A DNA stretch of 64,000 nt from the NCBI GenBank assembly GCA_965219415.1, contig OZ244742.1, forward strand, positions 608,001 through 672,000, read 5' to 3'. Shown piece after piece: positions 55,714-59,493 of the stretch; position 1 is the stretch's first letter; every line of letters starts with the position of its first letter. Source of the DNA: Candidatus Marinacidobacterales bacterium (GTDB lineage Bacteria; Acidobacteriota; Vicinamibacteria; Marinacidobacterales; DATDRI01). The notes under the pieces are model-generated. The model was given only the letters and a program-made list of their open reading frames with translations. It was not told the origin of the DNA and did no database searches. The translations under genes were made by a program, and so were the position numbers.

Positions 55714-56320
55714 CGTCAGGATCCCTCGTTTCTCGCTAGGCGAGAGGGTCGCCCACTGGACCACCGCTCTGAGCTTCCTCTATCTCGCTCTCACGGGCCT
55801 GGCGCTATGGACGCCTCATCTTTACTGGTTAGCCGTCGTCTTCGGAGGCGGAGAAGCCATCCGATGGGGGCATCCTTGGGCGGGTGTCCTTTTCGTCACC
55901 TCTCTGGCCACGATGTTCGTCAATTGGTCACGCCAGATGAGGCTCGATAAAGACGACAAGATGTGGCTCAAGAAAATGCGGCAGTACATCGAGCACGATG
56001 AATCGGACCTGCCGGAGCCAGGTCGGTTCAACGCGGGCCAAAAGATGCTCTTTTGGGTCCAGACTTCCGCCGCCGTTCTGCTACTTGCTAGCGGCCTCGT
56101 ACTTTGGTTTCCAGAACAAACGTCCCGATCGCTGAGGCTCGCGGCCATACTCATCCATCCTGCCACCGCCGTCATCTCCATCAGCGGCATCATCGTTCAC
56201 ATCTATATGGCGACTGCCGCCGTTCCGGAGGCTTTTCGCGGCATGATTCAGGGCTGGGTACGACCCGGCTGGGCCGCCTCCCACCACCCCAAGTGGTATC
56301 GGGAGATCTCGAAGCGCTGA
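55694..56320 (+). CDS. fdnI: formate dehydrogenase cytochrome b gamma subunit
   Basis: ERVAHW, HPWAG, GRFNAGQK, VHIYM, WAASHHPKWY. Confidence 0.93.
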   Translation: MSPPQSDVRIPRFSLGERVAHWTTALSFLYLALTGLALWTPHLYWLAVVFGGGEAIRWGHPWAGVLFVTSLATMFVNWSRQMRLDKDDKMWLKKMRQYIEHDESDLPEPGRFNAGQKMLFWVQTSAAVLLLASGLVLWFPEQTSRSLRLAAILIHPATAVISISGIIVHIYMATAAVPEAFRGMIQGWVRPGWAASHHPKWYREISKR

Positions 56321-57024
56321 CCGATTTCTCCGAACGCGCGAAGAGAGCGCGCCTTCTAGCCGCACGCTTCCCTGCCGCTCGGGGAGCCCTCGAGTTCGTG
56401 GCCGAGCTGAGTGCTTTCCAGCAAACGGTCGACCCTGAGTCGCCGGCTGACTCACGAGACGGGCTGGTTCGGTTGGTTCGGCGGAGCGGCCCACCCCCGC
56501 TCAGGGAAGAAGCCGAGAGATTGGACCAAGCGAGCTGCGCGAAGGCCATACAAAACTATCTCGATCGGCGCGACCTGAGCTCTCCGCGCAGTTTTTTCGC
56601 ACGTGTGCTGCTGCAGCCCCGTTGGTTAGCAGCGACACCGTCTTCCAAAACGCCGGTTGTCGCGTCGCGGTCCTGCCCTCGATGTGGACATCCTCCACAA
56701 GTCGCATGTCTCAGACCAGAAGGTCATGGATCGGCGCTTTCGCTAGTCTGTTCGTTGTGCCTTGGAGAATGGACTTTTCCTCGCGGCGTATGTCCGGGGT
56801 GCGGTGTCGCCGATGATAAGAAGCTCGCTTATTACTCCGCCGAGGAGATTGGCCACATCCGTGTTCAGGTCTGCGACTCCTGCAAGACCTACATCCATAC
56901 CGTCGACCTCGCTAAGGATGCGGAAGCGATCCCAGATATTGACGAGATCGCCGCCTTGCCGCTCGACGTCTGGGCGCACGAAAAGGATTGTCAGAAAGTT
57001 CACGCTAATCTGGTAGGCATATAG
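56317..57024 (+). CDS. fdhE: formate dehydrogenase maturation protein FdhE
   Basis: CPRCG, CSLC..W.FPR..CPGC, CDSCKTY, DEIAALPLD; start uncertain (CTG overlapping the fdnI stop). Confidence 0.88.
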   Translation: MTDFSERAKRARLLAARFPAARGALEFVAELSAFQQTVDPESPADSRDGLVRLVRRSGPPPLREEAERLDQASCAKAIQNYLDRRDLSSPRSFFARVLLQPRWLAATPSSKTPVVASRSCPRCGHPPQVACLRPEGHGSALSLVCSLCLGEWTFPRGVCPGCGVADDKKLAYYSAEEIGHIRVQVCDSCKTYIHTVDLAKDAEAIPDIDEIAALPLDVWAHEKDCQKVHANLVGI

Positions 57025-57110
57025 CATCCTCTCGTCCGGACGAGCAAGGCCGCCGGCTGAGGCCGGCCCTATCAGGCGAGAAACTACCTGAGCTGATAAA
57101 AGGGTTGTCG

Positions 57111-57271
57111 GTGAAGGCCCCGGCAGCTAAACCCCGTAGCACCACTGGTGCACTAATGCCCCAGGACGAGCTTGGGTCCGATCCGGCTCCCTATCATTGG
57201 CGAGGCTTTGAACGGAAGCACTCCCCAGGGTCAGAATCCTAACAATCGCCATCTCGGGCCGGAGCCTTCAC
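57111..57271 (+). ncRNA. candidate bridge/seek RNA of the IS110 element
   Basis: 13/14-bp closing stem (57111-57124 with 57258-57271) enclosing segments that match the target flank and the donor junction. Confidence 0.7.
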
Positions 57272-57297
57272 TCACAAAAATACATGTGAGGTCAGTG

Positions 57298-58686
57298 ATG
57301 CACAAGCGCGTGAAAAAGAGTGGTAGGAAGTCGAAGAATCTGTCGCCGCAATCGCTGCCGGTGACAAGGTCGAAGGTAGCAGGCATCGATATTGGCAGTC
57401 GTGAGCATTGGGTATGTGGGCCGGCCTTGTCGGACGGTAAAGTGAACGTGCGGGTGTTTTCCCCAACGACACCGTCTTTGAATCAAATGGGGGATTGGCT
57501 CATCGAGCAAGGAGTCGAATCGGTTGCGATGGAAAGCACCTACGTCTATTGGATTCCGATTTATGAGTTGCTTGAATCGCGGGGTCTTGAAGTGGTGCTG
57601 GTAAATGCTCGACAGTTAAAAAACGTCCCCGGGCGTAAAACCGATATGCATGACTGTCAGTGGCTGCAGCTGTTACACAGCTGTGGTCTGTTGCGAGGCT
57701 CGTTTCGTCCTGGTGAGTCGATCTGCCGCCTACGCTCGCTTCACCGACAGCGTTGCAGCCTCATCGAGCAGTGTAGTCGAGCTATTCAATGGATACAGAA
57801 ATCTCTGGACCAAATGAACGTTCAGGTCCATCGTGCAGTGACCGACATTACCGGCGTCACAGGCATGCTCATCGTGCGCGCCATCGTTGATGGTGAGCGT
57901 GACCCGTCAAAGCTGGCTGCATTTCGTGACCAACGCTGCAAGAAGAGCGAAGAGGAGATCGCCGAGCATCTTACCGGCACTTGGCGTGACGAGCATCTTT
58001 TCAACCTCGCATCGGCTCTGCGTCTCTACGATGCGCTACAAGCCGAAGTCGAACTGTTCGACCAGCGTATCCTTGAAGTGCTCATCGAACTCCAGCCGCC
58101 ACAACGCAGACACCACAACGTGCCAGCTCATCCAAATCCGCAAAAACGATACGACATGCAGCATCGGGGCGAGAGCGAACTGCGCAACGAGCTGTGGCGT
58201 TTTGCTGGATGCGACCTCACCAGGATCGACGGAATCAGTCCAACCACCGCCGCCATTGTCCTCACCGAGATCGGATTCGACCTCTCTGATTTCCCTTTCG
58301 AAAAATTCTTCGTCTCATGGCTACATCTCGCCCCACGTCGCCCTATCTCCGGCGGTAAACAACTCTCCAAACGCCGCAACGGCACCGGCTCCAATCGCAT
58401 CGCCGGTGCCTTACGTATGGCCGCTGTATCTCTCTCCCGCTCCAAGACCGCCCTAGGCGCTTACTATCGCCGCACTGCTCGCCGTAAAGATGGCAAAACC
58501 GCCGTCTTTGCTACAGCACGCAAGCTCGCCCAGCTCGTCTTCCGCATGCTCAAATATGGCCACGATTACATCGATATCGGCGAACGCGCCTTCGAAGACC
58601 GTTTTCGCCAAAACCACATCAACGGTTTACAAAAGGCAGCCGAAGCTCTCGGATACACCCTCACTCCCCAGGCTTCCGGAGGGTAG
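57298..58686 (+). CDS. IS110 family recombinase/transposase
   Basis: AGIDIG, AMEST, GRKTD.HD (DEDD RuvC fold), ISGGK (catalytic Ser region), ATARKLA. Confidence 0.93.
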   Translation: MHKRVKKSGRKSKNLSPQSLPVTRSKVAGIDIGSREHWVCGPALSDGKVNVRVFSPTTPSLNQMGDWLIEQGVESVAMESTYVYWIPIYELLESRGLEVVLVNARQLKNVPGRKTDMHDCQWLQLLHSCGLLRGSFRPGESICRLRSLHRQRCSLIEQCSRAIQWIQKSLDQMNVQVHRAVTDITGVTGMLIVRAIVDGERDPSKLAAFRDQRCKKSEEEIAEHLTGTWRDEHLFNLASALRLYDALQAEVELFDQRILEVLIELQPPQRRHHNVPAHPNPQKRYDMQHRGESELRNELWRFAGCDLTRIDGISPTTAAIVLTEIGFDLSDFPFEKFFVSWLHLAPRRPISGGKQLSKRRNGTGSNRIAGALRMAAVSLSRSKTALGAYYRRTARRKDGKTAVFATARKLAQLVFRMLKYGHDYIDIGERAFEDRFRQNHINGLQKAAEALGYTLTPQASGG

Positions 58687-58711
58687 TTTCGGGTCAGGTG
58701 CGACTCTAGGG

Positions 58712-59493
58712 CTACCGAATATCGGTCAAATTCGGTGCTGGCGGATTGGGGTACTTTAGGAGCGACTCCTTGTACTGGTTGAACATCGAAGCAGATCCAA
58801 AAGAGCAGGTCAACGTCGCCCACTTGAACGGTTGGGTGGTCGCCCCGTACCTTCAGCTGGTTCGTCATCGTTCCGGGGACGGAAAACAAGTTGCAGCGAG
58901 ATGAGGTGACACTCGGCGAGATGTTCGACCACGCTGGCTACAACACCACCTACATCGGCAAGTGGCACCTCGACGCAGACGAAGACAGCCAGCCCTAAAA
59001 CCAGGGGTTCGAGCAGTGGCTCGTCGGGTTCTCCGGGACCACGGACGTGGTGCTGTACTCCACGAAGATGGCGGAGTTGGGTGCTCCGAAGACGCTGCGG
59101 GACTCGCTGCAGTACTCGATCATCGAGGCGAGGGGACGGCACGAAATGTTGAAGGTGCGTCCCTACGACCTGGAGTAGCGAGAGACCAAGGCGGATGGAG
59201 TAGCGGCCGGTCATCAGCCCGGCGCGGCTCGGTGTGCAGCCCGGCTCGACGAGGAACTAGGTGAAGCGCATCCCCTCCGCCGCGAGTTGGTCGATTCGCG
59301 GGGTTCGCATATCACCGCGGGTGCCTCCGTTGTAGGACGATACATCGCCGTAGCCGAGGTTATCGGCAAGCATGAGGACGACGTTGGGTTTGTCCTTCTG
59401 CGCCGACGCCGGCGCAAGATTCAGGAGGAGTATGGTCGCGGTGACGGCAAGAAATCTCGTCGACTCTCGCATGTCCATGTTTTCAACCCTCAC
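58712..59493 (-). pseudogene. arylsulfatase, disrupted by nonsense codons, deletion and internal inversion
   Basis: PNVVLMLADNLGYGD, TPRID, CTPSRAGLMTGRY on minus; IGKWHL segment on plus; C-terminal KYPNPPAPNLT on minus. Confidence 0.85.

Follow-up and report, generated by a model that had tools for sequence, protein, structure and literature searches.

A putative bridge RNA with two parallel seven-nucleotide guides in an IS110-family insertion sequence of a Candidatus Marinacidobacterales bacterium

Engineering work aims to turn bridge recombinases into programmable tools for DNA insertion. To our knowledge, almost everything understood about their mechanism comes from IS621 and a few relatives. 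The covered parts of the IS621 report (PMC11208160) describe 8–9-nt bottom-strand guides on the 5' side of the loop of the bridge RNA, and in the covered text of a preprint on the related element ISPpu10 (bioRxiv 10.64898/2026.03.19.712850) a boost by a stem-loop in the target DNA is shown by experiment. Here, an element of this kind is described in Candidatus Marinacidobacterales bacterium (Acidobacteriota; GenBank assembly GCA_965219415.1, contig OZ244742.1). The window, that is, the whole stretch that was analysed, comprises 64,000 nt (positions 608,001 to 672,000 of the forward strand), and positions below are those of the window. A sequence-only reading had proposed an IS110 element with a bridge RNA at this place.

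The locus very probably holds an intact IS110-family insertion sequence, 57045–58697, with a bridge RNA at 57111–57271 that carries both target and donor guides. The RNA of about 160 nt is encoded upstream of the recombinase gene in a left non-coding end of 253 nt; it would be transcribed, bound by the recombinase, and direct recombination by pairing. The family assignment of the sequence-only reading is borne out by the protein: PF01548 (N-terminal DEDD RuvC-like) covers residues 28–173 (E = 1.8e-21), PF02371 (Transposase_20, C-terminal) covers residues 307–391, and the NCBIfam model NF033542, "IS110 family RNA-guided transposase", scores 248.1 bits against a curated cut-off of 140. The motifs GIDIG (D31) and TDMHD are readable in the translation. 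The best match in the PDB is the IS621 transposase 8wt6 (E = 2.4e-9), where S351 of the query (RRPIS351G) is aligned with the serine of the RRYESG stretch. Going by the numbering of the paper and a tag offset of two residues, this serine would be S241 of IS621.

Relatives were gathered by a back-translated search with one genome per species, which gave 78 loci with recombinases of 29–94% amino-acid identity (best segment). Their contigs are labelled Acidobacteriota, Myxococcota, Verrucomicrobiota, Gemmatimonadota, Rokuibacteriota, Chloroflexota and others. Left ends from 39 non-redundant families (51–94% identity, alignment A2) entered the covariation analysis. Left flank, right end and right flank were extracted for 35 of them, and these 35 families serve the guide tests; the other four (L033, L058, L077 and L105) have no usable right end. 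Seven loci (L060, L072, L027, L096, L098, L100 and L102) were excluded from all family counts, either for an aberrant left end or for 41–48% protein identity with a poor alignment.

Covariation across the 39 families supports a structured RNA in the left end. It lies inside the 13/14-bp closing stem that the sequence-only reading had named (P1 in Table 1), and its target loop is 5' of its donor loop, as had been stated. The RNAalifold consensus and a hand-completed structure agree on six helices, in which 23 of 38 pairs are changed on both sides in a compensatory manner and 92.8% of the cells are paired. None of 500 shuffles reached any of five measures, and sliding the partners by 1–3 columns lowered the paired share to 34–56%. 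A single-sequence fold of 57067–57300 was not better than shuffles (z −1.16) and did not show the real structure. The two internal loops are alike: the 5' strand ends in ...C-AYUGG, and the 3' strand of the hairpin ends in CCCC, followed by A and then N5-YAG. One metatranscriptome contains a 156-nt contig that is 100% identical over 57098–57253, and a DNase-treated metatranscriptome of another study yielded contigs over 57079–57269 and 57141–57269 at about 93% identity. These contigs fit a discrete RNA weakly, without proving one. Separately, window position 57119 in P1 is C where relatives have U, which creates the C.A mismatch of this stem; T is found there in some contigs of runs X3 and X4.

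The N5-YAG segments on the 3' sides of the two loops follow the DNA at the borders of the element. The first five positions of the target guide (57164–68) equal left-flank positions −7 to −3 in 26/34, 29/34, 31/34, 35/35 and 33/35 families (z 5.7–8.2 against shuffled pairings). For the donor guide, 57228–32 equal right-end positions −7 to −3 in 32/35, 35/35, 34/35, 34/35 and 34/35 families (z 5.6–7.5); GGGTCAG had been called the left-donor guide in the sequence-only reading, and the match of 32–35 of 35 families at each position agrees with that. Both 7-nt guides are in the same sense as their DNA, so that each would pair with the bottom strand, like the left guides of IS621 (PMC11208160). 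At 57171, directly behind the target guide, 30/35 families have the base with which the left end starts (RD+1), which may represent a "handshake" with the product; when RNA columns were compared with RD+2 to RD+12, none passed the threshold. Six further isolated column pairs did so among the 35 families and were taken as noise, except 57192, which belongs to a segment treated below.

On the 5' side of the target loop, just before AYUGG, the motif CACC is antisense to the core G followed by GTG. It has only moderate support as a short candidate right-target guide, which would read the core G and at most three right-flank bases. Of 59 distinct sites in 33 families, 33 pair at RT+1, against 14.5 ± 4.5 expected (p = 2e-4, families permuted); six rows in which the right flank is the left end of an adjoining copy were set aside. 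Summed over +1 to +3, a count of one site per family gives p = 0.007; +2 and +3 singly are not significant. In L021, an 87%-identical element, AAUC stands at the position of this guide and the right flank is ATT. The guides span 57140–57234, and not the 62 nt within which all of them had been said to lie.

Several observations weigh against the reading given here. The families are akin, which makes the permutation p-values optimistic and overstates independence. The right ends of single-copy families were placed by a rule (GTTTC + 7 nt ending in AG) that had been learned from the multi-copy families. When one site per family is counted, RT+1 pairs in 13/33 families versus 8.4 expected (p = 0.046). 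In the 35 families, a column scan against the 12 nt that open the left end gave no signal of a canonical right-donor guide. An antisense right-donor guide was also sought in the 27 nt upstream of GAAAC, where nothing consistent was seen, and by eye in the variable stretch after AATCC, where there was nothing. In one of the 35 families, L021 (G008:C2:713644-715307), the right end reads GTTTC-GGGCAAG, which is its own left target, and the donor guide is GGGTCAG. This copy is the only full one in genome G008, and its right end looks like a 4–7-bp duplication of target bases or a conversion. A scan of 56500–59300 with Rfam release 15 gave no match at E ≤ 1. No sigma-70-like promoter or terminator was found in 56950–57350; a −10-like box (GATAAA/TAAAAG) is visible at 57095–102 by eye only, with TAGAAT in several relatives. 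As for the RNA libraries, DNA can occur in them, the matches are contigs and not reads, and little of the stretch is contained in runs X1–X3.

The 5' strand of the donor loop, 57189–96, presents a different relation. Its sequence, CCCTATCA, recurs in the same sense in a site 18–30 nt inside the element, directly past a GC-rich hairpin at the start of the left end. Six positions are variable, and at every one of them 34–37 of 39 families match their own site, as compared with 15.6–29.9 in shuffled pairings. The total is 266 matches versus 203 ± 5.2 (maximum of 226 in 5,000 permutations), and the match is 7/7 in 20 of 39 families, with 21 distinct site 7-mers. An antisense copy of 57189–95 was sought in the elements and their ±60-nt flanks and had no match in 35 of 35. 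Pairwise MAFFT of 57036–83 against 57162–209 returned an ungapped, uninformative alignment. The hairpin itself (at least 4 pairs, median 6) occupies the same place in 39/39 families. Its folding energy is not clearly better than that of mononucleotide shuffles (median z −1.0; 7/39 below −2), and the case for it therefore rests on its constant position and not on energy. The strongest match of the sequence-only reading is thus real and conserved, and it points at the donor and not at the target: as a left-target guide, CCCTATCA fails, covarying with the site inside the left end (57067–74).

The segment can be read as the right-hand recognition element of the donor, with a polarity unlike that of the IS621 right-donor guide. 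We tentatively propose, as a possibility that we hold with some doubt, that the two guides of the donor loop read one and the same DNA strand: the 3' guide would read the right end and 57189–96 the left-end site's bottom strand across the GC hairpin. Speculatively, the hairpin might extrude and fold the left arm back in a built-in U-turn, with the bottom strand taking the place of the IS621 top strand. An equally speculative option is that the segment and the neighbouring target guide read the integrated left junction colinearly for excision, which is suggested by the order in the RNA (target guide, then segment) being that in the DNA (left target, then site). Donor recognition across a hairpin, if true, would be a mode not described for IS621, ISPpu10, ISEc21 or IS1111 in the portions of the texts covered.

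An unlikely reading is that 57189–96 is no DNA guide and that its identity with the left-end site has another cause: both might be RNA, parts of a longer transcript beginning at the left end, and be bound by the same protein pocket, or both might repeat one motif for protein binding. The two copies also have similar flanks (GG..ATCATTCA..GGYGA). The GC hairpin could itself be RNA, as the IS621 bridge RNA has a 5' stem-loop and a junction promoter according to the covered text of the ISPpu10 preprint, and RNA-library depth peaks in bin 57032–57097 of run X3. However, 21 distinct 7-mers and 20/39 exact 7/7 matches are more variety than a protein motif would be expected to allow, and RNA–RNA pairing within one transcript is excluded by the lack of a complementary partner on the same strand. 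Much further down in probability is the idea that the structured RNA is a mere 5' leader that controls recombinase expression while the protein picks the site. The RNA does stand directly upstream of the open reading frame (ORF), with a GAGG ribosome-binding site after it at 57289–92, but a leader fails to explain the identity of the loop segments with left flank and right end in 35 families, and the protein family is RNA-guided by experiment in the covered parts of PMC11208160 and PMC11187229.

The ends of the element were derived from its copies. The genome of the window (G000; 8.05 Mb, 3 contigs) contains the element in 10 copies or fragments (98.9–100% identity): three full-length, three 5'-truncated, two with a common internal deletion (57228–57459), one 3'-truncated and one split, its two halves in opposite orientation. 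The full-length copy at C1:1519759-1521427(-) is identical to that in the window across all 1,653 bp. Seven copies with unrelated upstream DNA have common sequence from about 57036, and in six of these seven left junctions CCGGACGAG directly precedes CAAGGCC. The eight right junctions diverge after ...TTTCGGGTCAG, and seven continue with GT. The 46-mer 57030–57075 (up to 8 substitutions) occurs seven times in the genome, with the element behind every one. In 11 other genomes with several copies of related elements, the conserved left end is preceded by 7–8 nt that differ from copy to copy and always end in YAG (one genome has CGGGTCAG, CAGGTCAG and CTGGTCAG before identical left ends), so that the rule is flank...YAG^element...GTTTC-N5-AG^flank, where ^ marks a junction. 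Two copies in the genome of the window have uninterrupted paralogues of their flanks (...CCGGACGAG^G(A/T)GTGG...). For copy c7, the empty paralogue reads ...TCCGGACGAG^GAGTGGTTTTGG... as against ...CCGGACGAG^element^GTGTGGTTTTGG... when occupied; for copy c8, the empty paralogue is 85% identical and has no GT at the junction. For L021, the empty palindromic site ...AAAATCTTGCCCGGGCAAG^ATTTTGTC... is found elsewhere in G008.

Taken together, the multi-copy genomes, the empty paralogues and the empty site in G008 place the element at 57045–58697, with GGACGAG (57038–44) as target DNA and AG as the shared core. Left target and right end both close with this 2-nt core; there is no further duplication, and the c7 paralogue reads GGACGAG^G(A)GTGG. 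The junction of joined ends in a circle would read ...TTTCGGGTCAG^CAAGGCCGCC..., that is, ...GGGTCAG^CAAGG.... The sequence-only reading had put the element at 57073–58697. Its right end stands, and its left end has to be moved to 57045. With it fall the junction TTCGGGTCAGGCGAG proposed for the circle and the assignment of CCCTATCAG, which lies 22 nt inside the element, to the target side. The claim that removal of the element rebuilds the target CCCTATCAGGTGCG is contradicted by the common sequence of seven copies from about 57036, by the 46-mer never found without the element, and by the empty paralogues. The sub-terminal inverted repeats that it had named are present (57080–88 and 58682–90). 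They are 9 bp long with a 5-bp conserved core, and the element extends beyond them by 35 nt (left) and 7 nt (right). The right end extends only 11 nt past the stop codon.

A left end near 57036 with GT as the core would make 57164–70 an internal repeat or a right-donor guide. It takes its appeal from the copies in the genome of the window, all of which have CCGGACGAG on the left and most of which have GT on the right, and it is very improbable: the 7–8 nt in question vary between same-genome copies with identical left ends, the empty paralogues already have GGACGAG without an element (likewise GGGCAAG in G008), and the c8 paralogue does without GT.

The sequence-only model as a whole (element at about 57073–58697, CAG core, target CCCTATCAGGTGCG, guides CCCTATCA/GCAC/GGGTCAG/TCGCC) had in its favour TCAG at both proposed ends, four strings that do exist and a left repeat which, by symmetry with the right end, would point near 57072/73 on the bottom strand, yet it is the least credible of all, as 57036/57045–57072 is carried in seven copies with unrelated flanks, never occurs without the element and is missing from the empty paralogues, and as GCAC and TCGCC are paired scaffold, expected by chance and constant where the DNA changes. 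The strings are indeed where they had been reported (CCCTATCA at 57189–96, GCAC at 57218–21, GGGTCAG at 57228–34 and TCGCC at 57246–50). The probability of at least one occurrence in 20,000 mononucleotide shuffles of 57081–57297 is 0.004 for CCCTATCA and 0.014 for GGGTCAG. For GCAC, which was taken for the right-target guide and is the 3' strand of Pd, it is 0.72, and three occurrences are present in this region. For TCGCC, which was taken for the right-donor guide and is the 3' strand of P4, it is 0.24, and the string is unchanged where the left-end GGCGA differs: its covariation with GGCGA was examined in alignment A1 and rejected, with L032 and L046 changing the left-end bases yet keeping TCGCC. 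Covariation among homologues, which had been suggested as a check, was found for GGGTCAG with the right end and for CCCTATCA with the left-end site instead of the target, and was not found for GCAC or TCGCC.

Table 1. Features of the element, its predicted RNA and the adjoining target DNA (window positions)
Feature	Position	Strand	Remarks
Target-DNA arm CTCGTCC	57031..57037	+	Complementary to left target; hairpin/palindrome with 57038–44; not element
Left target (LT) GGACGAG	57038..57044	+	Includes core AG (57043–44); 57044 is the last target base; covaries with 57164–68
Insertion sequence	57045..58697	+	1,653 bp; copy comparison, identical second copy, empty sites
GC-rich hairpin	57048..57068	+	Arms GCCGGC/GCCGGC, loop TGAG 57058–61; start of left end
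Left-end sub-terminal site CCCTATCA	57067..57074	+	Same-sense DNA partner of RNA segment 57189–96
Left sub-terminal inverted repeat GAAACTACC	57080..57088	+	Reverse complement of 58682–90; GAAAC core conserved across families
Structured bridge RNA core (predicted)	57111..57271	+	161 nt; covariation
P1, closing stem	57111–24/57258–71	+	C.A mismatch at 57119/57263
P2	57131–34/57174–77	+	Encloses first internal loop
Candidate right-target guide CACC	57140..57143	+	5' side of target loop, before AYUGG; antisense to core G + GTG
Pt	57147–51/57158–61	+	Hairpin inside first loop
Left-target guide GGACGAG	57164..57170	+	3' side of target loop; same sense as left target, would pair with bottom strand
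P3	57178–81/57254–57	+	With P4 encloses second internal loop
P4	57185–87/57248–50	+	Second loop
Donor-loop 5' strand CCCTATCA, guide-like segment	57189..57196	+	Matches left-end site 57067–74, same sense
Pd	57199–208/57216–25	+	Hairpin inside second loop
Left-donor guide GGGTCAG	57228..57234	+	3' side of donor loop
IS110-family recombinase gene	57298..58686	+	462 aa; PF01548 + PF02371, NF033542
Right sub-terminal inverted repeat GGTAGTTTC	58682..58690	+	Overlaps stop codon; GTTTC + 7 nt defines right end in multi-copy families
Left donor (LD) GGGTCAG	58691..58697	+	Last 7 nt of element, including core AG; covaries with 57228–32

The target DNA has a structure of its own. At the upstream arm, CTCGTCC or CTTGTCC is found in four of the seven left junctions in the genome of the window, and in L021 and L033 the palindrome is altered in step (CTTGCCC/GGGCAAG). 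Palindromic targets occur only in the subfamily of the window element; other families have TTTC-like bases there. The strings GGACGAGGT and CCGGACGAGGT occur 171 and 12 times, respectively, in the genome, which means that some further determinant must restrict insertion. The window element is located 20 nt past the stop codon of an FdhE-like ORF (56104–57024), and synteny with the same-genus genome G001 breaks right after that stop codon, with the insertion at the break. An empty site was sought in G001 by synteny: the fdhE-like gene is alike up to the stop codon (80% identity), similarity then ends, and none could be read. In L049–L057, from two Terriglobia-type genomes, the element is inserted into arrays of the heptamer repeats CAGTGGT/CAGTGAT, and the target guide AAGGTCAG fits the repeat unit.

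Some of the copies deserve mention in their own right. Those at C3:615904-617543(-) and C3:2134851-2136493(-) have different left flanks and both start in the hairpin loop TGAG (window 57057/57058); one of the two adjoins the inverted, diverged right end of a related element. The hairpin may form in DNA and be a point of breakage or recombination. The copies at C1:1979163-1980589(+) and C2:268019-269452(-) are at different sites and have the same 232-bp deletion, which takes out the donor guide and the N-terminus of the recombinase. One of them has a clean empty paralogous site, and the deletion derivative therefore seems to have moved in trans. The segments C1:538473-539117(-) and C1:546006-547044(+) are halves of one copy, about 7 kb apart and in opposite orientation, with an overlap at 57667–57674, pointing to an inversion that had a breakpoint within the element. 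In the copy truncated at 57179, the right flank (C1:170691 onward) is where a further repeat family begins, of which the genome has at least 8 copies and which is probably a different mobile element. On public contigs, head-to-tail tandem copies, with a right end abutting the next left end, are seen in L032, L070, L084, L087, L043 and L045; such tandems resemble a circle junction that became fixed in the chromosome.

From these data, the following mechanism is suggested for the bridge RNA. The RNA would adopt a three-way fold (P1, P2 and P3) carrying two homologous internal loops, in each of which a hairpin ending in CCCC leads through an A into a 7-nt guide (N5 + YAG). The guide of the second loop, 57228–34, is identical to the final 7 nt of the element, and recombination would join ...GGACG-AG^GTG... 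(target) with ...GGGTC-AG^CAAGG... (joined ends) at the common AG core. On its 5' strand, the target loop would offer CACC as a short antisense guide for the core G and at most 3 nt of the right flank; the donor loop has in this place 57189–96, a same-sense repeat of the left-end site just past the GC hairpin. In the subfamily of the window element, the left target would be the 3' arm of the target hairpin CTCGTCC/GGACGAG.

If so, a second natural architecture would be at hand, with two parallel 7-nt guide modules behind a fixed CCCC-A lead, and the family would supply some 30 naturally reprogrammed guide/target pairs. The guide order is reversed despite the upstream position of the RNA, and donor recognition seems to use a sub-terminal site past the hairpin. 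Should the pairing rules hold, the design space would be wider (another core, another split of specificity between the sides, gating by target structure), and there would be a bearing on the kinship of IS110- and IS1111-type elements. For annotation, exact ends become available for an element without terminal repeats, where misplacement is easy and did occur in the sequence-only reading. No published description of this RNA architecture was found in the literature searched; the covariance models and tables that Durrant et al. give for ISfinder elements may already include this RNA family.

Compared with IS621, as described in the covered parts of PMC11208160 and PMC11208158, the window element shares a DEDD + Ser recombinase, an RNA in a long left end, a target loop followed by a donor loop, and left guides in top-strand sense that include the 2-nt core. 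Both are without terminal inverted repeats and without duplication beyond the core. In contrast, the core is AG here and CT in IS621 (PMC11208160), and the order of the guides is reversed, with specificity concentrated in the 3'-side guides, when set beside the parts of the IS621 description covered. The top-strand target guide has only about 1–4 nt here, and in place of an antisense right-donor guide by the core there is a same-sense segment that matches a sub-terminal site past the GC hairpin. The inverted repeat has 9 bp versus 2–3 bp in the portions of the source consulted, and the recombinase has 462 aa versus 326 aa (328 residues in the 8wt6 chain). If the element is read on the opposite strand, the target-loop geometry and the core (CT) would become IS621-like; 57189–96 stays unlike IS621 even then, as this segment and the other donor guide would read one strand.

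With ISPpu10, as far as the preprint was covered (bioRxiv 10.64898/2026.03.19.712850), the element shares a left target that is one arm of a target-DNA stem-loop, formed together with the bases immediately upstream. There, experiments tested the need for the hairpin, whereas here it is only a pattern in seven insertion sites, and the RNA architecture differs from that of ISPpu10 as it does from that of IS621. For the remaining systems, the covered sections of PMC11187229 serve as the source. The IS1111 seekRNAs (ISEc11, ISPa11 and ISKpn4) come with sub-terminal inverted repeats with short terminal extensions, and their top-strand match lies 5' of the bottom-strand match, as in the window RNA. 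Their RNA is downstream of tnp, however, which is why the label "ISPa11-like" given to an upstream RNA in the sequence-only reading does not fit. Their repeats are 11–13 bp, their extensions 7 and 3 bp and their transposases 330–350 aa; the window element has an upstream RNA, a repeat of 9 bp (5-bp family core) and extensions of 35 and 7 nt. ISEc21, of the IS110 family, resembles the window element in its upstream non-coding region (seekRNA) and its linear short target, and differs in having the top-strand match 3' of the bottom-strand match, the reverse of the window RNA. Judged from sequence comparison, the protein and the general logic are those of IS110 bridge systems, and the predicted RNA would be an architectural variant of theirs.

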